Sequence record: NZ_CP090008.1
From: a plasmid
Direction: 5' to 3' (one strand)
Length of the DNA stretch: 64,000 nucleotides
The notes beneath the pieces are model-generated. The model searched no databases. It was not told the origin of the DNA and worked only from the letters and a program-made list of their open reading frames with translations. Made by a program: the position numbers and the translations under genes. The stretch's first letter is position 1, and every line of letters begins with the position of its first letter. Shown piece by piece: positions 1 to 18,605 of the stretch.

Positions 1-14
1 ACGATTACTCTTTG

Positions 15-92
15 ACCCAAAATCGATAAGGTTGTCTATGCCGTATTATTGTAGCACCTTGTTTCAAACAAATACCAGATGAGGTGTTTTTT
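15..92. repeat. Left copy of ~80 bp direct repeat (second copy 34064..34141, ~85% identical); continues as diverged ~200 bp repeat ending in an IS3-type end remnant
   Basis: cccaaaatcgataaggttgtctatgccgtattattgta... matches 34067-34106 nearly base for base; downstream ACTTGACAAATGGT shared at 199 and 34239. Confidence 0.7.
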
Positions 93-169
93 AGCATGCC
101 CTTTTATGGATCAAAAAGTGTTAAAAATAAGACAGTAACCTCAGAATAGCTACTGTCTTATCTCTTTTT

Positions 170-230
170 TTACTTAAAGCCTTGATAGACTTGACAAATG
201 GTAGAAAAGAGTCGTTTTTCTTTGTGAAAC
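170..230 (-). mobile_element. Solo IS3-family end remnant (encodes OrfB C-terminal ...FSTICQVY on minus strand)
   Basis: Matches 3' end of intact IS3 OrfB at 34236-34262 (…FATICQVY) and third copy at 32945-32975. Confidence 0.5.
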
Positions 231-254
231 ATAGGGAACACCTCACAACTCTTC

Positions 255-290
255 TTATCTCTATTCTTATCTCTATTCTTATCTCTATTA
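255..290. repeat. Tandem repeat 3 x 12 bp (TTATCTCTATTC)
   Basis: Direct reading of sequence. Confidence 0.85.
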
Positions 291-542
291 TACGACTTTA
301 CACAAAGAAAAGCCCTTGGAAACTTTTGTTCCAAGGACTTTGTCTTCAATCTGAGGCCTTGATGATCAATGCTTTTTATATTGCTCAAAAGTCATTCAAC
401 TTTTATAAGCAAATAATATACTCCACTTATTGTGAGAGTGTGCATGAATATTTAAAGGATTAGAATGTGACATATGTGGGACTTGTTTTGAAATTAATAA
501 AATATGATAATTAATACAAGATAACTGAAGGAAGAAAAAATA

Positions 543-773
543 ATGAATGGGATAGGTTATATACTTAGGAGGTTACGGAAAGAAAAAGGGATTACACAGA
601 GAGTTATCTATACAAATCTTTGTAGTCGAAAGCAACTTTCTAGGATAGAAAATAATACATCTTTCCCATCAGTATATCTTTTATATCATATTTGCCAAAG
701 ATTAGAAGTGACAATAGATGAAGTTATCAAATTAACATTAGAAGGAGAAAGTAATGGCAATCAGCACAAGTGA
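543..773 (+). CDS. Small XRE-family helix-turn-helix transcriptional regulator (76 aa), first gene of cluster
   Basis: HTH_XRE signature (LRRLRKEKGITQRV...LSRIENN); overlaps start of next gene. Confidence 0.6.
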   Translation: MNGIGYILRRLRKEKGITQRVIYTNLCSRKQLSRIENNTSFPSVYLLYHICQRLEVTIDEVIKLTLEGESNGNQHK

Positions 774-1800
774 ATTAAAGTATGAATTACCGGTCGAATT
801 AGCTGCTCGACAACCTATAGAACTGACATCGAGTAGAAGGGATGGAACTAGATTAATAGTAGGTTTTAAAAACTCTCAAAAAATCATTGATGATGTTTTT
901 ACAAATTTTACTAACTATATAAATTCAGGAGACTTACTTATTTTAAATAATAGTAAAACAATTTCACCAATTTTTTATGCATATTCCGATAAATATGGAG
1001 AGGTGAAATTTCATATTAAGACTAAGACTGATTTAGGATATGTATCATATATCAGAATTAGAGAAGATTTAAAAGATAAAATTATTGGTGAGAACTTTAT
1101 TGTAACTGATGAAATAGAAGTATCTGTAAATAAACGAACTGAAGGCGATGAATTTTTGTGTAGTTTTAATTGTTCTGAAGAGGATTTGTATAACTATTTA
1201 TTAATTAATGGTGAGGCAGTGAAATCAATTTATACAAAGAAAAAATGGTCAATTGATTATTATCAAAATGAAGTTGCAAATAAATTAGGATCTTTTGAAA
1301 ACCCAGCAGCGAGTCGGCACTTTACTAATAAAATGTTAAATATTTTACGTGAAAAAGGGGTAAGAATCGCGTATATTACTTTAAATTGTGCTTCGGTTGA
1401 TACAAAAATTTTTGAGGATATTATAGAGAAACATGTTGTTTTTAAGGAATACTATGAGATCCCCGAAGAAACAGTAAGATTAATTCAAGAAACAAAATTA
1501 AACGGTAATAAGGTGTTTGCGGTTGGAACTACAGTTATTAGGACTTTAGAAAGCTGTAATTATGATAATTTCAGAATTACTTCCCCTTTAAAAAATTATA
1601 CTGATTTATATATTCATCCTGGACATAATTTTAAAGTAACAGATGCTTTAATTACAAATTTTCATGGATCAATGACTAGTAGACTTGCTCTTTCTGCAGC
1701 TGCAATTGGTGTGGATAATATTATGAATTTATACAAACATGCAATCGAAGAAAAATATTTATTTTATGAGTTTGGGGATGCGAATTTATTATTCATGTAG
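754..1800 (+). CDS. QueA-family protein (S-adenosylmethionine:tRNA ribosyltransferase-isomerase homolog), divergent, in non-tRNA-modification context
   Basis: Alignable along full length to QueA: YELPxELIA, GDLLxxNN, GNKVFAVGTTVIRTLES (cf. VGTTSVRSLES), ALITNFH, EEKYxFxxxGDA. Confidence 0.8.
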   Translation: MAISTSELKYELPVELAARQPIELTSSRRDGTRLIVGFKNSQKIIDDVFTNFTNYINSGDLLILNNSKTISPIFYAYSDKYGEVKFHIKTKTDLGYVSYIRIREDLKDKIIGENFIVTDEIEVSVNKRTEGDEFLCSFNCSEEDLYNYLLINGEAVKSIYTKKKWSIDYYQNEVANKLGSFENPAASRHFTNKMLNILREKGVRIAYITLNCASVDTKIFEDIIEKHVVFKEYYEIPEETVRLIQETKLNGNKVFAVGTTVIRTLESCNYDNFRITSPLKNYTDLYIHPGHNFKVTDALITNFHGSMTSRLALSAAAIGVDNIMNLYKHAIEEKYLFYEFGDANLLFM

Positions 1801-1831
1801 TTTAGTAAATAACTAGAAAGGGGGTGATGAT

Positions 1832-1906
1832 ATGAAGAAGTTGACATTGAAAGAACTGGTTGATAAAAATAATGATTTGCTCTCACGTTGCACAATCAAT
1901 AAATAA
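1832..1906 (+). CDS. Unannotated 24-aa peptide MKKLTLKELVDKNNDLLSRCTINK (candidate precursor/substrate peptide)
   Basis: ATG 8 nt after strong SD (GGGGGTGA); sits between QueA-like and PqqD-like genes; followed by hairpin 1925-1951. Confidence 0.5.
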   Translation: MKKLTLKELVDKNNDLLSRCTINK

Positions 1907-1972
1907 TTAACCACGGAAAAATCCAATGAAGAATGATATTATTTCTTCATTGGAGTTTATTTTGGAGGGCTT

Positions 1973-2239
1973 ATGCTTTATAAAGTTAATCGAGACGTAG
2001 AAATAACAGAAGAAAATGGATATCAAGTTATTCATAGATATTCAGATGATTCGTATTTTTCCTTAGAAAATGATACTTTGTTTATTTTATTGAGTTATAA
2101 TGGTTTAAATAAATTGCAAGATATTGCAAAAAGCTTTGCAAAATATAAAGGAATTTCTAATAACAAAGCTTTAGAATACGTAGAACAAATCCAAAAATAT
2201 TTAGTTTCAGAAGGAATAATTGTCATAGATGAGAACTAA
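1973..2239 (+). CDS. PqqD-like small protein (RiPP recognition element-type peptide chaperone), 88 aa
   Basis: Size and pattern typical of PqqD family (…LNKLQDIAKSF…YVEQIQKYLVSEGIIV); SD GGAGGG upstream. Confidence 0.55.
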   Translation: MLYKVNRDVEITEENGYQVIHRYSDDSYFSLENDTLFILLSYNGLNKLQDIAKSFAKYKGISNNKALEYVEQIQKYLVSEGIIVIDEN

Positions 2240-3095
2240 ATCTAAGTTATTTAATAATATAGCAGAAGATAATATAGACTCCCTTTATGTACAATTGTGT
2301 AATTTAATATATAAAAATGGTAAAGTTGTAATTTCGAGAGGCATGGAGGTAAAAGAATTAATTGGGGTTAACTTAATTTTAACTAATCCCAAAAGACGCT
2401 TTTTAGAAAATGCCAACAGAAAATTAAAACTATACTACGCTATTGGAGAATTCATATGGTATATGAGGGGGAGTAATAGTTTAGAGGAAATTCAGTATTA
2501 TGCCCCTAGCATGTCACAGTTTTCTGATGATGGTTCTATTCTTCAAGGAGCTTATGGACCTAAGATTGTAACTCAAATCGATAAATTGATTACACTGCTA
2601 AGACATGACAAGGGGACTCGTAGGGCAGTTTTACCTATTTATTCTGCGAGTGAATTAGGTAAAGATAGTAAAGATATCCCATGCACACTCACATTAGAGT
2701 TTTTGATTCGAGCTAATAAGCTTCATCTCATTGTCAATATGAGATCAAACGACATATTTTTGGGGCTTCCGTATGATATTTTTTCTTTCACAATGATTCA
2801 GGAATACATTGCAAATAAGATAGGTCTAAATTTAGGATATTATTATCATAATATCGGAAGCTTACATGTCTATAAGAAACATTTTGATAGAATAAAAGAA
2901 ATATCAACTATGAATATACATAAAACATCAGAATTCAATAACTCAAATTTAATCTTTAAAAATTTAAGTGATTTGTTAAACATTGAAAAATCAATTAGAA
3001 ACGGAAGTCCATACAATATGAGCAAGGAATTACTTAATAATTCGGATTTCAATAGAATAAAGATTGAACTAGAGAAATATAAGGATAGTAGGTGA
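2229..3095 (+). CDS. Thymidylate synthase (ThyA)/dNMP hydroxymethylase-family enzyme with catalytic Cys intact
   Basis: IPCTLTLEF…NMRSNDIFLGLPYDIFSFTMIQEYIA…SLHVY aligns to ThyA PCH…[20 protein letters not shown]…HLY. Confidence 0.8.
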   Translation: MRTKSKLFNNIAEDNIDSLYVQLCNLIYKNGKVVISRGMEVKELIGVNLILTNPKRRFLENANRKLKLYYAIGEFIWYMRGSNSLEEIQYYAPSMSQFSDDGSILQGAYGPKIVTQIDKLITLLRHDKGTRRAVLPIYSASELGKDSKDIPCTLTLEFLIRANKLHLIVNMRSNDIFLGLPYDIFSFTMIQEYIANKIGLNLGYYYHNIGSLHVYKKHFDRIKEISTMNIHKTSEFNNSNLIFKNLSDLLNIEKSIRNGSPYNMSKELLNNSDFNRIKIELEKYKDSR

Positions 3096-3098
3096 GAA

Positions 3099-3683
3099 AT
3101 GTCTATCGGAAAACTAATCTATATATGTGGAATTGATGGTTCTGGGAAAACAACATTAGCCAAGAATCTTTCTAATCATTTTGGTGATAAATCAATATTT
3201 TTGCCATTAAATAATTCAAAAAGATTCATTAATGAAATTGATAGTTTCTGTAAAGAGTATAATACAGACAGGTGGAGTATATTTTCAGAATATTTTAGGG
3301 GAAATATTTGGGCGTTAGAGCTAGTTTATTTTTGTGAAAATATTTTAAAACCCGCTCTAAAAAAGTACGAATATGTATTCATCGATAGATATTATATATG
3401 TAATGCTATATATTCTAATTTATTAGTCACTAATAAGTTGGTTAATAGACTGCATGAATTACTGATTAAACCAGACATGGTTTTTTATATCAATATTAAT
3501 CCAGAGATCGCTTTTGAAAGAATTTTAAAAAGGAATGAGCAAAAAACGCCGAAAGAAAGTTTGGACAATTTAAAATTAGCTTCTGATTTATATTCAAGAT
3601 ATCTTGAAGATAAAAGTTATTATGAATTAGACGGAGAGAAGTCAGAGAATCAAATTTTAAAGTCTGTATTACAAATTATTTAG
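3099..3683 (+). CDS. Thymidylate/dNMP kinase-like P-loop kinase
   Basis: Walker A GIDGSGKTT; DRY-type motif FIDRYYICNAIYS as in Tmk. Confidence 0.7.
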   Translation: MSIGKLIYICGIDGSGKTTLAKNLSNHFGDKSIFLPLNNSKRFINEIDSFCKEYNTDRWSIFSEYFRGNIWALELVYFCENILKPALKKYEYVFIDRYYICNAIYSNLLVTNKLVNRLHELLIKPDMVFYININPEIAFERILKRNEQKTPKESLDNLKLASDLYSRYLEDKSYYELDGEKSENQILKSVLQII

Positions 3684-3699
3684 AATTTAGGATTAAGAT

Positions 3700-4689
3700 A
3701 TGAAATTTGAAACAGTACTAGATTTTTATATATACTATTTGGAAATCCTTCTGAAAAGGGAAAAAAATCATACTAAAGTTGTCCCATTTTCGGAGATAGC
3801 TAATAAAGTCGAGGTTTTCAACAATAGTATTGAGATTGTTCAAGGAACTCATAGTAATATGCTATTTAGTAGATCTGAATTTAATTATAATGTAGTGCAT
3901 ATGCTATATTCTTTGAGTGGGAGAACAGATTCATATATATTAAAAAAATATAAAAGTTCATATTGGCGATATTCGAATGAGGGATTTTATGTCAATACAA
4001 TTGGGGAGCGGTTATATACTTTATATGGTAATCAAATTAAACGTTGTGTAAATTTTTTAAAAGAAAATATTTATACGTCAGATGCCGTTTGTTTTATGAA
4101 ATCTTTTGAAAATGAAAATATTGAATGTACTCTAAATCTTCATTTTTATTATAGAGATAATCGATTAAATTTGGAGTTATCATATAAAGGTTCTAGTTTA
4201 TTAGAGTATACTAACTCCGATCTATTTATTTATTCTTCTTTACTTTCATTAATGAGCCATTGGTTAGATGTGGAACCTGGAAGTTTATTTTTAAAATGTC
4301 ACTCGATTTTTATTTCAGAAAATGATCTAGAAAGAGCTAAGAAACTATTAGAAATTGGTAAATCGTTGAGAAATATTGGTATTTCAATGAATCATAGGTT
4401 TTCATCCAGTATTGAAACTTATCGTTCAGAATTTTCTGAAGCTATCAATAGAATAATTGCTTGGGATACTGTTGATATTACTCAGAGAGTTTCTGAGGAA
4501 TTAGAGTATATAAAAAAGTATTTTACTCCATATATTCAAGACTTGTTACTTATTCTTTTAGCGGATAGATTTCATCAAACTGATAGTGATTATAAAATAG
4601 TATTGAGTCAGCTCTCAGATAGGTCAATTGGGAAATTTAAGGAAACAATTGATAAAATACAATTTAATAAATTATTAGAGGTAATTTAA
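3700..4689 (+). CDS. Divergent ThyA-fold paralog (possible hydroxymethylase/methyltransferase or non-catalytic partner)
   Basis: IECTLNLHFYYRDNRLNLELSYKGSSLLEYTNSDLFIYSSLLSL resembles ThyA core (PCH…QRSxDxxLGxPFNIASY) but lacks the R-S-x-D phosphate motif. Confidence 0.4.
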   Translation: MKFETVLDFYIYYLEILLKREKNHTKVVPFSEIANKVEVFNNSIEIVQGTHSNMLFSRSEFNYNVVHMLYSLSGRTDSYILKKYKSSYWRYSNEGFYVNTIGERLYTLYGNQIKRCVNFLKENIYTSDAVCFMKSFENENIECTLNLHFYYRDNRLNLELSYKGSSLLEYTNSDLFIYSSLLSLMSHWLDVEPGSLFLKCHSIFISENDLERAKKLLEIGKSLRNIGISMNHRFSSSIETYRSEFSEAINRIIAWDTVDITQRVSEELEYIKKYFTPYIQDLLLILLADRFHQTDSDYKIVLSQLSDRSIGKFKETIDKIQFNKLLEVI

Positions 4690-4691
4690 AT

Positions 4692-4952
4692 TTGATAATT
4701 AAAAAGAGTCTTGCTGCTATACAACGTTCAGTATCAGGAAATGAATTTTTGTTAAATTTACTTACTGATAGGACTTTTCTCCTTAATGAAGTTTCTCTCT
4801 ATATTTGGAGTAATCTTGGAGAATGTAGTACTGAGGAAATAGCTGCAAATTTATCTAAAATGTATAATGAAAAAACCGAGATAATTCAAAATGATGTAGA
4901 TGAAGTTATTAATATTTTACAGGAAGAAGGGTTAATTGAAATTCTGAATTAA
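4692..4952 (+). CDS. Second PqqD-like small protein (RRE-type), 86 aa
   Basis: FLLNEVSLYIWSNLGECSTEEIAANL…DVDEVINILQEEGLIE is a textbook PqqD-family pattern. Confidence 0.65.
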   Translation: MIIKKSLAAIQRSVSGNEFLLNLLTDRTFLLNEVSLYIWSNLGECSTEEIAANLSKMYNEKTEIIQNDVDEVINILQEEGLIEILN

Positions 4953-4970
4953 GAGAGGTGGAGGATATTA

Positions 4971-5657
4971 ATGGCTGAAATTATTTATAGTATGATTGCT
5001 AATGAGATTTCAGAGCAATTGTCAGAGGATAATATTGTAATTTGGAAATCTGAGATGGATGGACTGGGGACCTCATTATCTGATATCGATGCATATTGTA
5101 TCTGCAAGGAAGAAAAAGTAATAAAAAGCTTTGTATATGAAGGGACACCGGTTGATATTGAATATGTGACTTCGGAAAGGCTAAAAGCTAAAATTAATAA
5201 AATTTATCAATACACTAATCATGGTGATATTTATAAAGGATTAGATGAAGATTTGAAATTATTTTACAGATTACAAAGAGGAGAGAAATCAGCTAAATTT
5301 TCATTGATTGGAGTTGAAGTTCCCACACTTGAGGAAATTTCTAAGATTGCAGCACAATATTATTATGAATTATTTTTAGGTCTGTATGAAGATGCTTATA
5401 AAATGTACCATGGGAAAAATAAATTAGATTCTTTTGTCCTTTCCCTAGAGACATTACAAATGTCTATTGCAACTTATTTAGCTAGGGTAGGGAAACCACA
5501 ATTTAAGAAAAAATGGCTATTTAAATATTTTAATATAGTAGCTAACAATTCCCTATATAAAGATTTAATTACACAATTAGAATCAACACAGGAATATGAT
5601 TTAATGGAATTCACAGAGAGTATACTAGTCAATTCAAAAAAGCTTCTAGAAATTTAG
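4971..5657 (+). CDS. Pol-beta superfamily nucleotidyltransferase (LinB/ANT-like)
   Basis: hG[GS]…DhDh motif: MDGLGTSLSDIDAYCI; helical C-terminal domain. Confidence 0.65.
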   Translation: MAEIIYSMIANEISEQLSEDNIVIWKSEMDGLGTSLSDIDAYCICKEEKVIKSFVYEGTPVDIEYVTSERLKAKINKIYQYTNHGDIYKGLDEDLKLFYRLQRGEKSAKFSLIGVEVPTLEEISKIAAQYYYELFLGLYEDAYKMYHGKNKLDSFVLSLETLQMSIATYLARVGKPQFKKKWLFKYFNIVANNSLYKDLITQLESTQEYDLMEFTESILVNSKKLLEI

Positions 5658-5679
5658 TATATTGAAAGGAGGTGAGATT

Positions 5680-5742
5680 ATGGTCTATAAAAAACCTATT
5701 GTTGAAGATATTAAATTAAGTGCCTCTGCATTACTTGTATAA
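5680..5742 (+). CDS. Unannotated 20-aa peptide MVYKKPIVEDIKLSASALLV (second candidate substrate/precursor peptide)
   Basis: Perfect SD AGGAGGTGA 7 nt upstream of ATG; followed by 12-bp perfect inverted repeat 5764-5775/5820-5831 plus T-run. Confidence 0.45.
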   Translation: MVYKKPIVEDIKLSASALLV

Positions 5743-5763
5743 TATCTTAGTATAAGTCGGAGA

Positions 5764-5831
5764 GTTGAACAGAATAATTATGTAGTTAATATGACTAACA
5801 GGAAGTATTACTACAAAAAATTCTGTTCAAC
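5764..5831 (+). terminator. Stem-loop (12-bp perfect arms GTTGAACAGAAT/ATTCTGTTCAAC) followed by T-rich tract; likely leaky terminator/attenuator after peptide gene
   Basis: Direct reading. Confidence 0.5.
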
Positions 5832-5857
5832 TTTCCATTTTTTATAGAGTAATAAAA

Positions 5858-6664
5858 ATGAGCAAAATTAGGTATATCATAATAAAGATACTATTACATC
5901 AATTTTACGGAATCAAAAATATAAAATTAATAAATTGTGTTAAAAATATGAATAAAGTTTATATTTTTGAAGATATCAACAAAAAGGTCAAAATGGTTTT
6001 AAAAGTAGAATCTGAAAGAAGAATTAATTCGATCAAGTACCAACATATATTTTCCAATTATGGGATATCGCCAAAAATAATTAAAACTAGAACAGGAAGA
6101 CAGTATATAAAGATTTATAGATTGGTAATATTTGTACAAGAGTATGTAACATCTAGTAAAAGAAAGGTCACTTCAACAGAGATTGTGGGATTTTTAAAAT
6201 ATTTTTACGGAAAAATGGATGAAATAAGAGAATATTTACCCGAAGTTTTGACTACTTATCCATTATATAAGCAAGGCGCATTAAGTAAATGGTTTTATGT
6301 AGTCCATGGTGATTTACGTCCACAAAATATTATCATTACCAGGGATAGTTTTAGCGTGATTGATTTTGAGTATTTAAGTCTAGGAATTCGAGAAACTGAA
6401 ATTCTCAAGTTAATTATAATAATTTGTAAATATCAAAGTAATTTGATTGAATCGCTATATTCTAAATTCTTAGAATCAGACGTAATAGAAATGCATATAG
6501 AGGAGGCGATAAGGGTTCTTTTGTATGATCTTCTTAAATCAAATTTTCCTGAAAAGGTCAAGAATAATATTCCAAAGAATTATTTTTTAGAAATAACTTC
6601 TGAAAGGGAGGCATTAATAAACTTTTGCCATACATATTTAAAAAGAAAGGAATCCCAAAAATGA
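5858..6664 (+). CDS. APH/choline-kinase-fold kinase (aminoglycoside phosphotransferase-like); true start may be internal (ATG 5948)
   Basis: Catalytic loop HGDLRPQNIII and IDFEY (DFE/DFG-like) motifs. Confidence 0.65.
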   Translation: MSKIRYIIIKILLHQFYGIKNIKLINCVKNMNKVYIFEDINKKVKMVLKVESERRINSIKYQHIFSNYGISPKIIKTRTGRQYIKIYRLVIFVQEYVTSSKRKVTSTEIVGFLKYFYGKMDEIREYLPEVLTTYPLYKQGALSKWFYVVHGDLRPQNIIITRDSFSVIDFEYLSLGIRETEILKLIIIICKYQSNLIESLYSKFLESDVIEMHIEEAIRVLLYDLLKSNFPEKVKNNIPKNYFLEITSEREALINFCHTYLKRKESQK

Positions 6665-7710
6665 TTTCAACTGAGATTGAGAAAAAATATCTACTTACAA
6701 AAGAAGAATTTCTATCCTTTAGTAGAGATTTTTTTAAAAGTGCAAAAATTCAAGAACAAACTAATTATTATTTTGATAGTTTAGATTTTTCACTATTAAA
6801 GAGAGGAATGACTCTTAGAATTCGAGAAAAATATGATAAATATATTTTAACATTAAAGAAAAAGAAATCAGTCAAAATAATTGTAGAATCGGAAGAAATT
6901 AATTTCGTAATTACACCGCAAGACTTTCAAGAGGCAATCTTAACTGGAGAATTTCCCCAAAATGTAAAGAAAGAACTAGACTCATTAATTCCCGAAAAGA
7001 AAATTTTTTATCTAGGTTTTCTAAAAACTAAAAGATATGTAATCGAAAAAAATTCTTTGATATATTGTTTAGATAAAAATAATTATTTTGGAAAGGAGGA
7101 TTTTGAATTAGAAATTGAAGGAACAGAGAAAGGACTAAAAGAAATTGAAATTGATATTTCCAAGAGCAAATCTAATAATGTTGGAAAATATGCTAGATTT
7201 ATTGATGAATTATTGAAAGGAAACGGTAATTATCTGATTAAAACTCAAGTGTCTGCAATTATTCTTAATAAAAGTAGCGATAAAGTTTGTCTTATTAAGA
7301 AGGATATTCCAACCTCAAGTATACATAATATGTGGCTTCCACCCGGTGGACATATCGATTTTGGAGAAAATTTAATAGATGCTGTCAAAAGAGAGGTCTA
7401 TGAAGAGACAGGGTTAGAAGTTACGGTTTCAAAATTATCTAGCATTGTATCGTTTCATCAAAAAAAGGCAGAGCAAGCTATTTGTTTCTTTTATGTCGCA
7501 GAATCCCAAAATATTAATGAAATAAATGTCACTGAGCCAGGCATTGAATGCAGGTGGTTTAATTTAAAAGATATACTAAGTGGAGATGATATAAATATGA
7601 CATCCTATCATAAGCTTATAATATCCGACTTGCAAGATAACAGGATTTTATATTTGAATTTAAAAAAATCTGATAATCAATATAATATTGAAAATATAGT
7701 TCATATTTAA
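6661..7710 (+). CDS. CYTH (triphosphate tunnel) - Nudix hydrolase fusion protein
   Basis: N-term EIEKKYLL (ExExK CYTH signature); C-term Nudix box GGHIDFGENLIDAVKREVYEETGLEV. Confidence 0.7.
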   Translation: MISTEIEKKYLLTKEEFLSFSRDFFKSAKIQEQTNYYFDSLDFSLLKRGMTLRIREKYDKYILTLKKKKSVKIIVESEEINFVITPQDFQEAILTGEFPQNVKKELDSLIPEKKIFYLGFLKTKRYVIEKNSLIYCLDKNNYFGKEDFELEIEGTEKGLKEIEIDISKSKSNNVGKYARFIDELLKGNGNYLIKTQVSAIILNKSSDKVCLIKKDIPTSSIHNMWLPPGGHIDFGENLIDAVKREVYEETGLEVTVSKLSSIVSFHQKKAEQAICFFYVAESQNINEINVTEPGIECRWFNLKDILSGDDINMTSYHKLIISDLQDNRILYLNLKKSDNQYNIENIVHI

Positions 7711-7894
7711 AAGATTAAAACTAGTTATATATAAAATCTAGGTATAACTGTTCCACTGAATTCCATAGATATAATTAGCTTCTTAAATGTAGGGCTATTT
7801 TATAGCTTGAATATACAATATAAGTGCACAATAAAAACTCATAAGATTTTCTAGTAAAATAGAATTGAACGAACTAGTTACGAAAGGAAATCTT

Positions 7895-8881
7895 ATGAGC
7901 TACCATCATTTTACTATAGATGAACGTGAAAGCATTCTCGTTTACCGTACGCATGACCTAAATTTTTCTCAAATTGCTAAATCACTTCATCGTCATTAGT
8001 CTAGCAGTAGTGGTGAGTGGCAACGACATCTTAAAGAAGGAAGCTATTCTCCAAGTCATGCATAGGAATCTTATCATATGGCTAAATCACACTGTGGGCG
8101 GAAACGTATGCTTGAAATAGATCACAATTTAAGCAATACCGTCAAACATCTATTTCTCGATTACCAATGGTCTCCCGAAGAAATAGAAGGTCGGTTGCGA
8201 TTAGAGTATGGAAAAACTGTTATTAGTTATCAAACAATCTATAGAGCCATTTACAGAGGGCATTTTGATGATAACTCACTATCTCATGGTGCTCGTGGTG
8301 TCATTCGAAAGCTCCGTCATCGTGGTAAAACACGTCATACAAAAGGTTATGTCGAAAATAGAGGGAAAATCTCTATATCTCATACAATTCACGAAAGACT
8401 AGAAGATGCTAATAACCGAACTAGAATAGGAGATTGGGAAGCCGATACTGTTGCAGGTAAAACTAGAAAAGCTTGTTTAGTGACTCTAACTGACCGTTAT
8501 TCTCGTTTTCTAAAAATCCAGAAGGTAGCTGTCAAGAAAAGCAAGTTGGTAATAGAAGCTATGGTAAAAATGTTAGAGCCCTTGACGAAGCATACAATAA
8601 CTCCTGATAGAGGGAAAGAATTCACGTATCATCAGAAATTGAGCGATCAATTGAACATTGAAGTCTATTTTCCTGACCCTCATGCTCCATGGCAACGAGG
8701 AACCAATGAGAACACGAAAGGATTACTTTGAGAGTATTTTCCAAAGGGTAGTGATCTAACATTGGTTGATGATCAGACTATTCAGCTGTGGGAGAACAAA
8801 CTTAATAATAGGCCACGAAAATGTCTTAACTGGAAAACACCTTATGAAGTATTCTATGGGGAAAGTATGCACTTAATTTGA
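7895..8881 (+). pseudogene. IS30-family transposase, inactivated (two in-frame stops near N-terminus, frameshift near C-terminus)
   Basis: MSYHHFTIDERESILVYRTHDLNFSQIAKSLHRH* …; DDE core …GDWEADTV…; C-terminal continues in another frame to 8881. Confidence 0.75.
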
Positions 8882-8953
8882 CAATTCAAGAGTAAAATAA
8901 ATTTAGAAGACATATTTTTATTTGATTTAAGTTATTTGATTTAAGGAGGCGAA

Positions 8954-9745
8954 ATGCTACTAGCTGTAATAAGAAGAAACTGGCAGATGTATAAAAGATA
9001 TTTTCCAGTAACATTGTTTTTTAATAGGGGTTTGGATGCTGGTTTTACTCTATTAGGTTTGTGGTTAATAGCGAATTTTTTATTCGCAAATAACATTAAA
9101 GTTGGTAATGCTATAGAGTACTCAGATTACTTCAGTTATGCTGCAGTAGGATTGGTTTATTATAATGCATCAATTGCTATTCTGATGAATGTAGGGAGAG
9201 CATTAATAACAGAAGTTAGAGAAGGCACTCTTGAAAGTACATTAGTATCTCCTTTTAACATTGTCTATTATTACTTAGGAATCTTTTTAGAGCAGTTTGT
9301 AAGGACCTTTTTGGAATTTCTATTTTCTTATATAATTGCTATTTTGCTCGGTGCAGATTTACAACAAATTACATTACTGATTTTATTGCTTGGCTTCTTA
9401 TATGTTTCGATTTGCTCTTTTTCGATGGGGGTATTCCTATCAAATATAATGTTGTGGTTTAGGGATACATTCATTAGTCAAAATACAATTTTTCTGATAA
9501 TCTTCTTGGTCTCAGGCATTACCTTTCCAATAGAATTATTGCCAAAATTTTTAAGGGTGATTAGTAATTTTATACCGTTAACATATTCTATTAAGGCAAT
9601 AAGAACCTTATATTTGGAAACCCAGACGAGTATGATCAATCTTAGCTTTATACAAGGTTTACTACTTTCAATATTATACTTCTTGATAGGGATTCTGGTA
9701 TATAATAAGGTTGAGAAAAAAATTGTAAGTGATGTTTCATATTAA
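8954..9745 (+). CDS. ABC-2 type transporter permease
   Basis: 6-TM hydrophobic profile, 263 aa, translationally coupled to ATPase. Confidence 0.6.
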   Translation: MLLAVIRRNWQMYKRYFPVTLFFNRGLDAGFTLLGLWLIANFLFANNIKVGNAIEYSDYFSYAAVGLVYYNASIAILMNVGRALITEVREGTLESTLVSPFNIVYYYLGIFLEQFVRTFLEFLFSYIIAILLGADLQQITLLILLLGFLYVSICSFSMGVFLSNIMLWFRDTFISQNTIFLIIFLVSGITFPIELLPKFLRVISNFIPLTYSIKAIRTLYLETQTSMINLSFIQGLLLSILYFLIGILVYNKVEKKIVSDVSY

Positions 9746-10744
9746 GTGAAGGAGAGAAATAAAATGTATGAAGTATTCAATATTTCAAAAGATTATGTAA
9801 CAAAAAAGAGAATAGGATTGTTTAAACATAAAAAAGAAGTTAAAAAAGCTATACAAGATGTAAATTTATCAGTCCCTAGAGGTAAAATTATTGGTGTTTT
9901 AGGAGAAAATGGTGCAGGGAAAACAACTTTAATAAAGATGATGACAACACTTCTATCAAGTGATACTGGAAAAATTTTGATAGATGGAGTTGACATTAAT
10001 CAAAATGTAAAAAATACTCGAAAAAGGATCAACATCATTAGTGGAGGAGAAAAAAATCTCTATTGGAGATTGACTGCAGTTGAAAATTTACTCTATTTTG
10101 CTTCTCTGTACGGTCTTCCAAAGAAAGAGGCATTACCTAAGATAGATAATTTATTGAATGAATTAGGGCTTTGGGAAAGTAAGGATACTCCTGTAGAAAA
10201 ATTTTCAAAGGGAATGAAGCAACGCTTACAAATTGCTAAAGGACTAATCAATGATCCAGAATATTTATTTCTTGATGAACCTACACTAGGTCTAGATGTC
10301 AGTATTGCTTACGAGTTGAGAAAAAAATTAAAAGAGATAGCGGCTAAGCGGAATACAGGAATTTTGTTAACAACTCACTACATGGCTGAAGCAGATGAAT
10401 TATGTGATTATATTTATTTTTTAAAACATGGTAAAGTAATTGTGTCAGGTACCAAAACACAGGTTTTTGAACAATTACAGATGACACCAGAGCTTCATGT
10501 CATCCTTTCAGATAGGGATGATGAAAATTCTTCAAAGCTGGCTCAAGTTAGTCGTTTATTTCCATGTATAATTTTGGAAAAATTTGGTAGTAGTATATTG
10601 TTGAAATTCTCTCTTTCAGAATATAATGTGCAGGATATAATAAAAAGCCTATATAATAATCAAATTGAAATTAAGGAAATAAGATATAATGAGCCTACTC
10701 TTGAAAATGTTATTCTAAATTTAGGAGGAAAGAGCTTAAAATGA
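9746..10744 (+). CDS. ABC transporter ATP-binding protein
   Basis: Walker A GENGAGKTT, signature FSKGMKQRL, Walker B LFLDEPT. Confidence 0.85.
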   Translation: MKERNKMYEVFNISKDYVTKKRIGLFKHKKEVKKAIQDVNLSVPRGKIIGVLGENGAGKTTLIKMMTTLLSSDTGKILIDGVDINQNVKNTRKRINIISGGEKNLYWRLTAVENLLYFASLYGLPKKEALPKIDNLLNELGLWESKDTPVEKFSKGMKQRLQIAKGLINDPEYLFLDEPTLGLDVSIAYELRKKLKEIAAKRNTGILLTTHYMAEADELCDYIYFLKHGKVIVSGTKTQVFEQLQMTPELHVILSDRDDENSSKLAQVSRLFPCIILEKFGSSILLKFSLSEYNVQDIIKSLYNNQIEIKEIRYNEPTLENVILNLGGKSLK

Positions 10745-11535
10745 ATTCGATAATAGTTAGTACTTTTAAGAGTGAATTTAGAAGAACATTTTTAAATGAC
10801 AGTATTAATAAATTTTATTTTTTTTCAATGATACTTTGGCCAATTATTTCTCTAATTCAAATTTTTTACAATATGCAAGCCTTTCCAATTACGGATATAC
10901 AAATAGCATCTCTAAGATATGAAGACCAATTAATTTATTTTATATTTATTGGTTATTGTGTTTACATCATTTTTTCAAATGCTGTTCAGAGTGCATGGAG
11001 GCTTGGTGGAGAACGATATCAAGGAACTCTTAGTCAAATTTTTATTGCTCCAATTAAAAAAAATCTATGGCTTTATGCACGTACCTTATCACTTATTTTA
11101 AGTAATTCATGGTTTTTTATCACTATTTTTATTATTGGAAATTTTGTCTATTCTGATGCTTATGAATATATTCTTGCGTCCACTTTTATTTTAGTTGTTG
11201 CATCCTGGATTTGGGCAAGTTTCTTAGGTAGTATTTGTATCAGTTTGAGAGATGCAACGGTAGTTTATGTATTATTGGAGAGCTCTCAAAATACTTTTAG
11301 TGGTGCTAAAGTTCCATTATCAAAATCACCTCGATTAATAAAAGTTATAGGGAGTTTATTTCCCATTAGCTACACAATTATTTATCTAAGAGATATACTT
11401 CTTTATAAAGAGATTATAAGTATAAGTGCTATTTGGTGCTTATGCATAAATATCTTTGTTATTTTATTAACGAAGATAGTGTTAGAAGTTGGAGAAAGAC
11501 ACATGAAAAAAGTGGGCAGTTTTGATTTATTTTGA
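10741..11535 (+). CDS. ABC-2 type transporter permease (second)
   Basis: Multi-TM, overlaps ATPase stop (ATGA). Confidence 0.6.
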   Translation: MNSIIVSTFKSEFRRTFLNDSINKFYFFSMILWPIISLIQIFYNMQAFPITDIQIASLRYEDQLIYFIFIGYCVYIIFSNAVQSAWRLGGERYQGTLSQIFIAPIKKNLWLYARTLSLILSNSWFFITIFIIGNFVYSDAYEYILASTFILVVASWIWASFLGSICISLRDATVVYVLLESSQNTFSGAKVPLSKSPRLIKVIGSLFPISYTIIYLRDILLYKEIISISAIWCLCINIFVILLTKIVLEVGERHMKKVGSFDLF

Positions 11536-11766
11536 ATCGTGCTTAACTAGCTATTTAAATTTAGAGTAATTATTTCATTTAATTTATATTTTATCAATAA
11601 TAAAGGGGTAGTACTAAGGAAAAATTATATAGAGAGTTAGCTGAATCCTCTTCGAAACTCAGTGAAAAATAGTTCAATTATTGTTTCGTCAGATCAACAC
11701 GATTTAATCATTTGATACAATGCTCATATCTTTCAATACTCAATTGTTTTTACAACTTTTGGATGT

Positions 11767-11976
11767 TTAATTTATACAGTCTACGATTTCTACCATATTT
11801 TCAACCTTGCAATCAAGTGCAATACATATTTTCAATAAAATATCAGTAGTGATATTTTCCCCTTTTCCTAATTTTGCTAGAGAAGAGGAGCTAATCCCTA
11901 CTTCTTGCCGGAGCTTTGTTTTGATTCAACCTTTATCAATGAGAAGTTTCCATAATTTATTATAACTAAACTTCAT
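11767..11976 (-). pseudogene. XRE-family HTH regulator with internal stop (MKFSYNKLWKLLIDKG*IKTKLRQEVGISSSSLAKLGKGENITTDILLKICIALDC…)
   Basis: Manual translation of minus strand. Confidence 0.6.
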
Positions 11977-12593
11977 CTGAGTTTTTTCCTTTGTTCCATG
12001 AAATACCGTAGAGTTCATTTCCGTTACTAGAGAGTCTCAGTACAGTATTTTCTGACAAGAGATGATTAGCTTCTGGATAATACGAGATAGCTTTATCAAA
12101 GGATAAAAAGACTTGTTTGTTCAATGATTTTGATTGGTCATATAGCTTCAACAGGGCTTCGGTTGCTTGGTAACTAATATTACTTAAGAGTAATGAATCA
12201 TGGGCAAGTGCTGGAAGATTAGTTAGATAGAGTATTGCTAAATCGTACAATATCATTCCTTTGAACTTAGTTCCTGTACCGTCGTCGTCAGGGGTATAGA
12301 AGGAATAGCTATTATAGGTTCTGAGGATAATTTGAGGAGCTTTGCGAATATCTGGATAAAGGAAATCATTGAATTCTCGCATTTTAGCATTGATTTTTCC
12401 TTCTAGCTCTATTAGAATGTGATCCAACGCTACTGTATTTTCAAAACTAATATATTCTGTTGGGTTTTCAATCCCATAAACAGATTGCAGTAGGTCTAGC
12501 CAAAAAGACTGGCTCTCTTGTCTTTCTCTACCACGGTTTTCCCAACGCTTAATAAAAGCCTTGGCTTGTTTTTTTCTGTTCTCTAGTGTTCAT
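11966..12593 (-). pseudogene. N-terminal fragment (frameshifted, truncated ~200 aa) of MmeI/PglX-like type IIG RM / BREX-type DNA methyltransferase
   Basis: …AFIKRWENRGRERQESQSFWLDLLQSVYGI…FENTVALDHILIELEGKI is the conserved N-terminus (PD-ExK region) of this family; stop after 16 codons then frame change; no MTase domain follows. Confidence 0.55.
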
Positions 12594-17294: not shown

Positions 17295-18605
17295 ATGGAT
17301 AAAAACAAACGTTCAATGATCCTAAAATCTGGAGCTTTTTTAACAGCCCTTGTAGCAACAGGTTTGGTTAATAATGGGGTATCAGCAGACGAAACTGCCG
17401 CACCAACTGGACCAACAGATAATGCTACTGTTGCGACTGGACACTCCGATACACTTCTTCCTCCCGCTTCATCAACACCAGCGACACCCGGTACCAATAC
17501 TACAGATGTCCCAACTGCTGAAGCACCTAAAGTTGACACTCCAAAAAATGAAGGTGTAACAACTGAGACACCTAAAGTAACTGACGGTTCTACTGGTACA
17601 GGTGTAGCTACACCTACGACTTCTGAAAATGCAAATACAACTGCTGAAACGTCTACAGTTACCTCTGAAGGAAGTGAAGGAAACTCTACTTCTGATACAA
17701 CTTCAACTGCATCAGAAACACCTACCCCTTCAGAGCACACAGTAACTGAAACTCCTACTAAGCCTAACGCTACGGATACTGCTAATACTAACCATAATAG
17801 TGAAAATAACACTAGCAGTAGCAGTGAAAGTTCAACAAATCCTGTTAATGATAAAGGGTCAACTGTTGCCACACCAACTCCAGCACCAACTGAAGGGAAT
17901 AACGCTTCAAGTTCTGAAGCACCTAGTGGCTCATCAACTTCAGCTGAATCTTCTTCAACAAGTTCAGAAACACCAAAAGTATCTGATGGAACATCTGGAA
18001 CAGGTGTAAGTTTGCCAAGTAGCGAAGGAACAACATCTTCTGAGAAATCATCAACCTCTCCAGAACTATCTGAAACTGCTATAAATACACCTCATATTCT
18101 TGACGGAACTAATGGAACTGGTGTCTCTACGCCATCTGAACATAAATCAGACAATCGTACAGAAGTAGCTTCAACTTCAGCAGCATCTTCAAACAAAGTA
18201 GTTGAGTCTCCTAAAACTGAAGAAACTCCTAAAGTTAGCGACACGAATGTTCAAGAAGCACCTAAACCAGGGGACGTTTCTCCTTCAACAAAACAAGTTG
18301 TACTTAATGTGACTCCTAGTCAACCAGTCGTCACAAATACTGGTTATAAAGTTGTCTCAACAAACAATAGTGATCTTATCGTACAAAACTTCGATGGTTC
18401 TGTAGCCTCAGTTCCAGCTTCACAGGCAGGAGGAGCAGTGAATGAGGATGGAACTGTCTCTGTTAAGACCGAGGCAGGAGAAATGGTAACACTTCCTGAA
18501 ACAGGGGAAGCTGGAACAAAACTCGTTACCTTTGGATTCTTGATTTTGGCAGCACTTGGTCTTCAACGTACAGCTGTAAAACAAGATAAATGGTACTCAA
18601 ACTAA
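17295..18605 (+). CDS. LPXTG cell-wall-anchored Ser/Thr-rich surface protein
   Basis: Signal peptide; LPETG + hydrophobic + basic tail; internal repeats TPKV(T/S)DG(S/T)(T/S)GTGV. Confidence 0.85.
   Translation: MDKNKRSMILKSGAFLTALVATGLVNNGVSADETAAPTGPTDNATVATGHSDTLLPPASSTPATPGTNTTDVPTAEAPKVDTPKNEGVTTETPKVTDGSTGTGVATPTTSENANTTAETSTVTSEGSEGNSTSDTTSTASETPTPSEHTVTETPTKPNATDTANTNHNSENNTSSSSESSTNPVNDKGSTVATPTPAPTEGNNASSSEAPSGSSTSAESSSTSSETPKVSDGTSGTGVSLPSSEGTTSSEKSSTSPELSETAINTPHILDGTNGTGVSTPSEHKSDNRTEVASTSAASSNKVVESPKTEETPKVSDTNVQEAPKPGDVSPSTKQVVLNVTPSQPVVTNTGYKVVSTNNSDLIVQNFDGSVASVPASQAGGAVNEDGTVSVKTEAGEMVTLPETGEAGTKLVTFGFLILAALGLQRTAVKQDKWYSN

Follow-up and report, generated by a model that had tools for sequence, protein, structure and literature searches.

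A rare Firmicutes gene cluster that probably encodes an RRE-dependent peptide and pyrimidine-nucleotide pathway

Positions 543-11535 of a 64,000-nt stretch of plasmid record NZ_CP090008.1 (hereafter the window) carry a gene cluster that, judged from its predicted proteins, probably specifies a natural-product pathway in which a ribosomal peptide, dependent on RiPP recognition elements (RREs; RiPP, a peptide made on the ribosome and modified after translation), meets pyrimidine-nucleotide chemistry. The product would most likely be exported and consist of a small peptide of ribosomal origin, linked covalently to a modified (deoxy)cytidine nucleotide. The cluster is best read as an RRE-dependent peptide cluster with a tailoring set (a QueA paralog, two MilA-fold enzymes, two kinases, a nucleotidyltransferase (NTase) and a CYTH–Nudix fusion) for which, as an initial annotation of this DNA had supposed, no described counterpart was found in open-access papers or on bioRxiv. 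Genes were called through profile searches with Pfam and NCBIfam models, using equivalog cutoffs for the latter. All genes listed in the initial annotation were confirmed in place on the plus strand by open reading frames (ORFs) and profile searches, among them the CYTH–Nudix fusion, the ABC-2 exporter and an IS30 pseudogene, each with Pfam matches. The hallmarks of an RRE-dependent ribosomal peptide pathway (two RREs, two peptide families, an exporter and, in relatives, CPBP/Rce1-like proteins) and the pyrimidine-nucleotide tailoring module were both present, as had been proposed.

Neighbourhood comparison revealed co-conservation of the gene set across genera, which bears out the earlier view of a real system rather than a chance juxtaposition. 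By BLAST, every core gene has orthologs at 22-49% identity, and the cluster recurs at this level of protein identity in Streptococcus mitis, Gemella, the Geobacillus thermodenitrificans plasmid CP020031 (L010), Brevibacillus panacihumi (L012), Bacillus cereus and metagenomic contigs; the comparison also included a Logan contig (L009). QueA, RRE1, ThyA2, ThyA1 and Tmk are present in 9/9 full variants and the APH kinase at every locus not cut by a contig end. Gene order is shuffled between variants, while the repertoire is constant in at least five genera. Type I clusters, the window included, add RRE2, NTase, CYTH, Nudix and the ABC-2 exporter. In type II clusters the additional genes encode NTP_transf_5, Orn/DAP decarboxylase, acyl-CoA dehydrogenase, carrier and ATP-grasp proteins, together with an HFCD flavoprotein, cytidine deaminase and ABC exporters.

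The family is small and sharply bounded, comprising about 10 variants in two architectures. A scan of 185,579 species genomes based on the ThyA1 alignment recovered the full set only in three mitis-group Streptococcus, one Gemella metagenome-assembled genome (MAG) and Brevibacillus, together with a reduced module in four Clostridia MAGs. An exhaustive HMMER search of 1.84 billion sequences with ThyA2 returned only 12 representatives at E < 1e-10; among the contexts of these matches, L061 and L062 share the architecture of the window, whilst L057, L058 and the Bacillus cereus loci L059 and L063 share the second. The QueA-like relatives that rank above housekeeping QueAs (39-76% against ~37% identity) all lie in clusters of this type. 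The cluster was found in no genome titled Streptococcus salivarius among the 185,579 species representatives, and thus is apparently an accessory island. The S. salivarius complete genome CP066093.1 (L006) matches the window with 99.95% identity over the cluster, and exact copies of the proteins occur in CP066093.1, in S. intermedius and in hundreds of metagenomic contigs. In the assembly collection, 1192 indexed blocks contain an exact match to the QueA-like protein. These genes bear generic names in public annotation ('tRNA ribosyltransferase-isomerase', 'thymidylate synthase', 'hypothetical protein'). The cluster is best explained as an island that S. salivarius acquired horizontally and that varies between its strains, representing among streptococci a Firmicutes family that is rare but conserved.

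Two short ORFs led by Shine–Dalgarno (SD) sequences occupy the only sizeable intergenic gaps of the cluster. The first, the candidate precursor PepA (1832-1906; 24 aa, MKKLTLKELVDKNNDLLSRCTINK), has a strong SD (GGGGGTGA) and ends in Lys. A short PepA-type ORF follows QueA (type I) or ThyA2 (type II) in every variant. In the seven variants one Cys is the sole invariant residue of the core, in the context [F/L]-[S/N/A]-[K/R/S]-C; the S. mitis peptide is MKKLTLKELVNKASDLLACCNATK, and those of L009 and L061 end in LVFSSCGSK and VAFSKCGEMVS, respectively. In Geobacillus (MVYTTPKLLIVGNLEEM...VFSKCRSDMAFAKCRADLAFSKCRG) and Brevibacillus (MKQYECPELLLVGDLEEM...FNKCRTDFNKCRTDLTFSKCRA), a single precursor contains three copies of a core cassette, F-[SN]-K-C-R. 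The type II locus L057, which also encodes an HFCD-family flavoprotein, has a single peptide (MKEYRKPKLNETKLQNPSEFAAIVGKVGC) with its Cys at the C-terminus. On this alignment, the single Cys of PepA is the predicted conserved modification site.

The second peptide, PepB (5680-5742; 20 aa from the ATG at 5680, MVYKKPIVEDIKLSASALLV), likewise has a strong SD (AGGAGG) and ends in Val. In all type I clusters examined (S. salivarius, S. mitis, L009, L010, L012 and L061), the NTase gene is directly followed by an ORF of this type, about 20 aa long. The sequences are MAYKKPIVKDIKLSASTILR in S. mitis, MKKYKKPSIKVLRINAACLVT in L009, MKKYEKPQVIVIKMPTAIVEI in Geobacillus and MNKYVSPELKALKISAAKLVA in L061, with a double, 37-aa version in Brevibacillus (MKEYKKPKLILVKKINDIKYEKPLLKQTKMPVATMLI). 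The motif Y-[KEVR]-x-P is found in PepB of six cluster variants, and Y-x-x-P-x-L opens both PepB and the PepA leaders of Geobacillus, Brevibacillus and L057. YxxP is the characterised recognition sequence of lasso-type RREs, and the PqqD-like RREs of different RiPP classes bind the more general motif W/Y/L-x-x-P/L/I (PMC12710340). The window PepA possesses only a loose L-x-x-L and lacks the clear YxxP seen in PepA of L010, L012 and L057. In DNA alignments of S. salivarius with S. mitis, the SD, start and stop of both ORFs are kept, leader changes are mostly synonymous and indels appear right past the stop. Judged by this coding signature, together with conserved length and position, both short ORFs, already noted in the initial annotation, are evidently real, coding and conserved.

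A folded RNA element follows each peptide gene. Directly 3' of PepA is a hairpin with a U-rich tail (1918-1966; dG -19.8 kcal/mol, z = -4.3), which has an equivalent after PepA in S. mitis (dG -23.1, z = -5.5) despite sequence divergence. Downstream of PepB is a long terminator-like hairpin with a U run (5758-5846; dG -36 kcal/mol, z = -7.7), of which no counterpart was found in the first 143 nt past PepB in S. mitis. Hairpins are typical after precursor genes in bacteriocin operons. Positions 540-7710 had been described as a single operon; the region is indeed co-directional and AT-rich, but the hairpin at 5758-5846 probably divides it into two transcription units.

The two RREs proposed earlier were both recovered. 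RRE2 (4692-4952), a PqqD-family peptide chaperone, matches PF05402 directly (44 bits, E 2e-11); its nearest NCBIfam models are lasso PqqD chaperones, with scores under their cutoffs. RRE1 (1973-2239), a discrete PqqD-like peptide-binding protein, gave no direct Pfam match in its window copy. It was identified by hhalign to the RRE2/PqqD family (probability 98.7%, E 2e-16) and by PF05402 matches in 4/8 orthologs. Both proteins are, by these profile comparisons, PqqD-type RREs and predicted peptide binders. In every non-streptococcal variant RRE1 adjoins ThyA2, with a stop/start overlap in three loci and QueA beside them; downstream of RRE2 the order is without exception NTase, then PepB. This adjacency supports the pairings RRE1–ThyA2 and RRE2–NTase–PepB.

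The QueA-family protein (754-1800) has the S-adenosylmethionine (SAM) ribosyltransferase-isomerase fold and scores 248 bits against Pfam Queuosine_synth, as expected from the initial annotation. It falls, however, under both NCBIfam equivalog cutoffs (225.5 bits against 324 for NF001140; 215.4 against 267 for TIGR00113) and is 34-37% identical to the QueAs of T. maritima and B. subtilis. In a neighbour-joining tree of 124 QueAs, the eight cluster-associated proteins group together in one clade of 13 leaves, separate from the 111 housekeeping QueAs; the other leaves of this clade are the same proteins under search identifiers and one sequence without examined context. The copies with examined context thus form their own clade, all in clusters of this type, and always neighbour a short peptide gene, an RRE and ThyA2. 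The sub-cutoff scores and the separate clade set the protein apart from housekeeping QueA (tRNA oQ34 synthase). Of the 108 columns with the highest conservation among housekeeping QueAs, the paralog retains 61, the C-terminal H-x-P/S...F-G-D region among them, and so looks catalytically competent. Isoelectric point and net charge, used as a proxy for tRNA binding, did not differ between cluster and housekeeping QueAs. Most 'clade-specific' residues are common to a 16-member housekeeping sub-lineage and are therefore markers of lineage, not of function.

The thymidylate-synthase-family pair named in the initial annotation retains its fold and catalytic Cys, and its assignment can be refined to a MilA-type hydroxymethylase and a MilA-fold paralog that also keeps the Cys. 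ThyA1 (2229-3095; Thymidylat_synt 104 bits) finds its best Protein Data Bank (PDB) match in MilA, the CMP 5-hydroxymethylase of the mildiomycin pathway (E 4e-37), far closer than any thymidylate synthase. Published determinants (PMC5175136) were mapped through the MilA alignment onto columns invariant in four orthologs. The Cys152 nucleophile, Glu74, His213, Tyr215 and Asp183 are invariant, the last four corresponding to MilA Glu68, His216, Tyr218 and Asp186. Cytosine is selected by the Asp, and ribose by the pair Lys133'/Ala176 in MilA and BcmA, whereas T4 dCMP hydroxymethylase and thymidylate synthase have Arg/Ser as their deoxy-type pair (PMC5175136). ThyA1 has Arg131 and Ser173 at these positions, both likewise invariant. 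By this two-residue rule, conversion of dCMP to 5-hydroxymethyl-dCMP, and not of CMP, is predicted, and we predict ThyA1 to be a cytosine-nucleotide C5-hydroxymethylase of the MilA/T4 gp42 type with a preference for dCMP. Its phage relatives annotated as pyrimidine hydroxymethylases are at most 44% identical.

ThyA2 (3700-4689) is more divergent, its Thymidylat_synt score of 24.3 bits lying exactly at the cutoff. Its identity is confirmed by orthologs as well as by an AlphaFold2 (AF2) model (mean pLDDT 76), which superposes on MilA over the full length, including the C-terminal helical domain, with a TM-score of 0.71-0.74, against ~0.5 for thymidylate synthases. The invariant nucleophile Cys143 and Asp174 are kept and the (S/A)-N-D motif is lost; the phosphate-binding arginines of the window copy are degenerate. 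A thymidylate synthase activity (dUMP to dTMP) was rejected for both proteins: Asp183 (ThyA1) and Asp174 (ThyA2) replace the Asn at E. coli N177, and NCBIfam ThyA scores are far under cutoff. We know of no report of a ThyA-fold enzyme acting as the RRE-partnered modifying enzyme of a peptide.

Between the two MilA-fold genes lies the Tmk-like P-loop nucleoside-monophosphate kinase (3099-3683), which was called correctly from the outset. It scores 80 bits against Thymidylate_kin and 81.3 bits against TIGR00041 (cutoff 83.25), its best PDB matches are thymidylate kinases, and it has the P-loop GIDGSGKTT and a DRY motif. The second kinase (5858-6664; PF01636, 25.5 bits) does have the APH fold first ascribed to it, and can be placed more precisely as choline-kinase/CotS-like: the kinase catalytic residues K49, H150-x-D152-x4-N157 and D169 are invariant in orthologs, and the best PDB matches of the family profile are the choline kinase LicA (4r77, E 1e-10) and YtaA (YtaA/CotS). 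The enzyme thus resembles small-molecule alcohol kinases more than peptide kinases, at least by profile.

The NTase (4971-5657; 228 aa) has no direct Pfam support in its window copy. Its assignment stands on an invariant motif (G33, S37-D38-I39-D40, D62-x-E64) and on an AF2 model (pLDDT 87) for which the best Foldseek matches are 3c18 and the kanamycin nucleotidyltransferase ANT(4') (6un8/1kny; probability 1.0), so that the general term first applied can be narrowed to kanamycin-nucleotidyltransferase-like. The NTase paralog of Brevibacillus gives weak NTP_transf_2 and Polbeta matches. The family comprises about six sequence clusters among 5.8 billion proteins. Its only distant relative outside the clusters, P0198 (392 aa; NCBI/JGI), also bears a CYTH domain on its single chain, a hint that NTase and CYTH may be functionally linked. 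The CYTH–Nudix fusion (6661-7710; CYTH E 3e-21, NUDIX E 2e-15) has an ExExK motif and a complete Nudix box. Its ATG at 6661 overlaps the kinase stop, with TTG 6625 as an alternative start, and CYTH and Nudix are two separate genes in L009, L010, L012 and L061. Catalytic motifs are kept in the hydroxymethylase, both kinases, the NTase, CYTH and Nudix.

The nucleotide part of the cluster also occurs without the peptide part. Four uncultured Clostridia MAGs (L016, 8726-12178; also L017, L019 and L020) carry MazG–APH–ThyA1–Tmk–unkX without QueA, RRE, ThyA2 or peptide genes, which marks the nucleotide part as a separable sub-pathway, possibly a free-standing 5-hydroxymethyl-pyrimidine nucleotide pathway. 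The unkX protein is weakly similar to uracil-DNA glycosylase (UDG) and is also encoded in the Geobacillus, Brevibacillus and type II clusters. The second architecture (L057, 1357-18469; L059/L063, Bacillus cereus GCA_025516385.1) keeps both QueA–RRE1–ThyA2 and ThyA1–Tmk–unkX. At the Brevibacillus locus, a dCMP/cytidine deaminase gene lies upstream, and there are further copies of the Tmk-like kinase (a second), the NTase (a second paralog) and the PqqD gene (a third) (6788-7294, 17376-18002, 19936-20763 and 20921-21038), suggesting a duplicated RRE–NTase module. In the Gemella MAG (L021), QueA, ThyA2 and the ABC permease are split into several ORFs, through either pseudogenisation or an assembly/frameshift error.

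The ABC-2 exporter (permease 8954-9745, ATPase 9746-10744, permease 10741-11535) is separated from the CYTH–Nudix gene by an IS30-family transposase remnant (7865-8731; rve and HTH_32 matches). The S. mitis variant lacks IS30, and its CYTH–Nudix gene lies right against the transporter. The exporter is therefore part of the cluster, and the insertion sequence (IS) a later arrival that stands outside the system. Transporter orthologs come last in the clusters of S. mitis, L009 and L010 but ahead of QueA in L061. Together with the Rce1/CPBP-like intramembrane proteins encoded in the relatives L009, L010 and L061, the exporter fits a secreted product. The transposase itself is broken into ORFs of 44 and 217 aa, whilst intact copies of 328-338 aa occupy the same site in other S. 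salivarius contigs. Alignment with the intact copy in contig L004 is gapless at 96.9% identity, pointing to inactivation through substitutions. Set against the 99.95% identity of the cluster to CP066093.1, another strain, the IS looks more diverged than its surroundings.

A pathway can be proposed that would give each of these proteins a role. In phage T4, 5-hydroxymethyl-deoxycytidine (hm-dC) nucleotides arise through gp56 (dCTPase), gp42 (dCMP hydroxymethylase) and gp1 (dNMP kinase). In the cluster, Nudix/CYTH (MazG in the reduced relative) and ThyA1 would turn dCTP/dCMP into 5-hydroxymethyl-dCMP, as do gp56 and gp42; the Tmk-like kinase would then raise the 5'-phosphate level, as does gp1, and the APH kinase would phosphorylate a primary alcohol, most plausibly the 5-CH2OH. 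RRE1 may bind PepA and present its Cys to ThyA2, whose own Cys would add at C6 and expel the leaving group to form a C5 exocyclic methylene, to which the PepA thiol could add, giving a thioether. Thiol trapping of the C5-methylene intermediate in thymidylate synthase provides a precedent; nonetheless, we regard this coupling as a whole as doubtful. Equally tentative is a role for the QueA paralog in moving the ribosyl-derived unit of SAM onto an amine of the intermediate, in place of tRNA, and we would put no more confidence in the suggestion that RRE2 and the NTase nucleotidylate, or join, PepB. The CYTH–Nudix protein could also limit a toxic pool of modified NTP, keeping modified dNTP out of DNA; the ABC-2 pump would export the product, and the XRE-type regulator encoded at the head of the cluster would control the operon. 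The boldest version of this scheme is a new RiPP class, in which an RRE-guided ThyA2 joins a peptide Cys to C5 of a 5-hydroxymethyl-(deoxy)cytidine nucleotide, the QueA paralog performs the first non-tRNA SAM ribosyl transfer, and oral and gut streptococci export the hybrid. We consider it possible, but rather less likely than its failure in one or other part.

Several points weigh against a peptide–nucleotide pathway of this kind. The case for product and chemistry is built from sequence, and the literature covered consists of open-access papers and bioRxiv. The structure of the product, its secretion and the 'Trojan horse' activity put forward in the initial annotation are pure inference. 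As the window PepA lacks a clear YxxP, its pairing with RRE1 is assumed. Residues flanking the PepA Cys vary, so that no nucleophile for QueA is evident, and in PepB the invariant nucleophile candidates are limited to Tyr and Lys; PepB could instead be a regulatory or membrane peptide. Given its degenerate arginines, ThyA2 could be unable to bind a 5'-nucleotide, or could have no catalytic function. The deoxy specificity predicted for ThyA1 suits DNA metabolism just as well as a natural product. Finally, the IS30 insertion may uncouple the exporter in the window strain.

Three other explanations were weighed against the peptide–nucleotide conjugate. In the first, PepA would serve as a scaffold: a nucleoside or amino-acid metabolite would be built on the Cys of this carrier and freed by proteolysis, and a small Cys–nucleoside conjugate exported. 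The Cys is the only invariant core residue, the F-[SN]-K-C-R core is present three times per precursor in Geobacillus and Brevibacillus, and the Rce1/CPBP-type proteins of L009, L010 and L061 could be the proteases required. L057, moreover, combines a C-terminal Cys with an HFCD flavoprotein, an ATP-grasp protein, a carrier protein and a pyridoxal phosphate (PLP)-dependent decarboxylase. Yet the window cluster is without a protease gene, ordinary multi-core RiPPs also have repeated cores, and the Rce1-like proteins of bacteriocin loci more commonly serve in immunity. We judge a carrier role unlikely, at roughly the level of a minority view that merits keeping in mind.

According to the second explanation, the cluster would act on nucleic acids, either modifying the DNA or RNA of its own cell with a 5-hm-dC-derived and queuosine-like unit or depleting or poisoning nucleotide pools against phage, with the peptides as regulators. 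ThyA1 does carry the deoxy-type Arg/Ser of T4 dCMP hydroxymethylase, and Tmk, Nudix/MazG and, in relatives, cytidine deaminase and the UDG-like unkX recall phage hm-pyrimidine pathways; the Tmk and Nudix proteins also weakly match candidate models of PADLOC. The streptococcal and plasmid copies, furthermore, sit among IS elements, AbiEii and restriction genes. PADLOC v2, however, identified no described defence system, returning only weak single matches to a generic HTH, to PDC-M51B (Tmk-like) and to PDC-S07 (Nudix), and the defence module offered as an alternative in the initial annotation gained no positive evidence. Viral collections hold many hydroxymethylase relatives, but of the 80 viral loci that carry the nearest relatives of ThyA1, not one encodes QueA, RRE, ThyA2, APH, Tmk, NTase or CYTH; a single weak Nudix match was obtained (L073). 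The cluster contains no DNA transglycosylase, glycosyltransferase or polymerase, and the two RREs, two peptides, exporter and CPBP proteins would be left without a role. A nucleic-acid target is accordingly very improbable in our estimation. The third explanation, an accidental mosaic of housekeeping paralogs and a decayed bacteriocin locus without joint function, could draw on the AT-rich, IS-rich setting (flanked or interrupted by IS110, ISL3 and a degenerate IS30) but is already largely refuted by the comparative data, since none of the 12 protein genes or the two peptide ORFs is broken, at least five genera have kept the set together (22-49% identity; order shuffled, repertoire constant), catalytic residues are invariant and the cluster is 99.95% identical between strains, so that we give it hardly any credence.

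With regard to the layout and surroundings of the cluster, every large ORF at 543-11535 is on the plus strand, with short or overlapping junctions, and the IS30 remnant is the sole broken part. GC content is 26-29% in the cluster against 37-41% farther downstream in the window. The first gene encodes the XRE-type HTH regulator (543-773; HTH_19/HTH_3, HTH_19 E 8e-9), the end of which overlaps the QueA start by 20 nt; an ortholog with 45% identity occupies the same position in L009. An Rfam scan of positions 1-12500 (E <= 0.1) detected no riboswitch or other RNA. A consensus promoter and terminator scan was uninformative in this AT-rich DNA, giving promoter counts equal to those of shuffles and missing both folded hairpins. 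As for possible island borders, only short AT-rich chance repeats were found in a search for flanking direct repeats. Upstream of the cluster, at 249-289, are three to four tandem copies of the 12-nt unit CTATTCTTATCT, lying between terminator-like hairpins at 123-165 and 309-341. On the downstream side, a 153-aa minus-strand ORF (11966-12427) matches the C-terminal DUF2326 domain only; it is probably a truncated remnant and lies at the downstream margin of the AT-rich island. ISL3 and IS110 transposases lie upstream of the cluster in other S. salivarius contigs.

If the conserved QueA paralog works with a peptide, an RRE and a ThyA-fold enzyme, SAM ribosyl-transfer chemistry would extend to natural products. 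The carriers include commensals that are abundant in humans, namely S. salivarius and S. intermedius, the S. mitis group and Gemella, and thus any bioactive product could matter for competition within the microbiome. The small size and sharp definition of the family also make it tractable for heterologous expression.

Comparison with known systems places the cluster near several pathways and within none of them. Discrete ~90-aa PqqD RREs, YxxP (in PepB and in the PepA leaders of Geobacillus, Brevibacillus and L057) and, in type II variants, an NTP_transf_5 nucleotidyltransferase are shared with lasso peptide clusters. A lasso peptide was rejected, however, as the window and related loci have neither an Asn-synthetase-like cyclase nor a B2 transglutaminase-like protease. 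A class III-V lanthipeptide was likewise rejected, the kinase being choline-kinase-like and no lyase or cyclase being present. Of the CMP hydroxymethylases MilA and BcmA, from the mildiomycin and bacimethrin pathways, MilA is nearest to ThyA1 by sequence and to ThyA2 by fold, and both cluster proteins have the Cys and the cytosine-selecting Asp. The cluster nonetheless differs in having Arg/Ser for Lys133'/Ala176 and a peptide-gene context, and a mildiomycin- or bacimethrin-like pathway was dismissed for want of a MilB/BcmB N-glycosidase.

The supply of hm-dCTP in T4 offers a further parallel, a trio of NTP pyrophosphohydrolase (Nudix/MazG), hydroxymethylase and NMP kinase. In the hypermodification of phage 5-hydroxymethyl-deoxyuridine, the kinase 5-HMUDK acts first and nucleophilic substitution follows (PMC8989533); the extra, alcohol-type kinase of the cluster could similarly activate the 5-CH2OH for substitution. 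Unlike these systems, the cluster does not occur in phages, as judged by the 80 viral loci, lacks a glucosyltransferase and DNA-acting enzymes, and possesses RREs, peptides and an exporter.

To microcin C, the model invoked in the initial annotation, the likeness is that of a short ribosomal peptide presumably joined to a nucleotide and exported. Membership of that group does not hold: ORF and profile searches of 543-11535 found no ThiF/E1-like MccB and no MccC/D/E/F. The microcin C precursor, moreover, is a peptide of ~7 aa ending in Asn, against 24 aa ending in Lys for PepA and 20 aa ending in Val for PepB, and the conserved site of the cluster is an internal or C-terminal Cys, with predicted RRE-dependent recognition instead. 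QueA, the SAM ribosyltransferase-isomerase that acts on tRNA preQ1(34) and, to our knowledge, has been characterised on tRNA only, shares its full-length fold with the cluster paralog, as the Pfam score indicates. In a Bacillus amyloliquefaciens variant of microcin C, homologs of the tRNA-modification proteins CmoA/CmoB decorate the cytidine, which would be a precedent for recruitment of the QueA fold to a peptide–nucleotide pathway.

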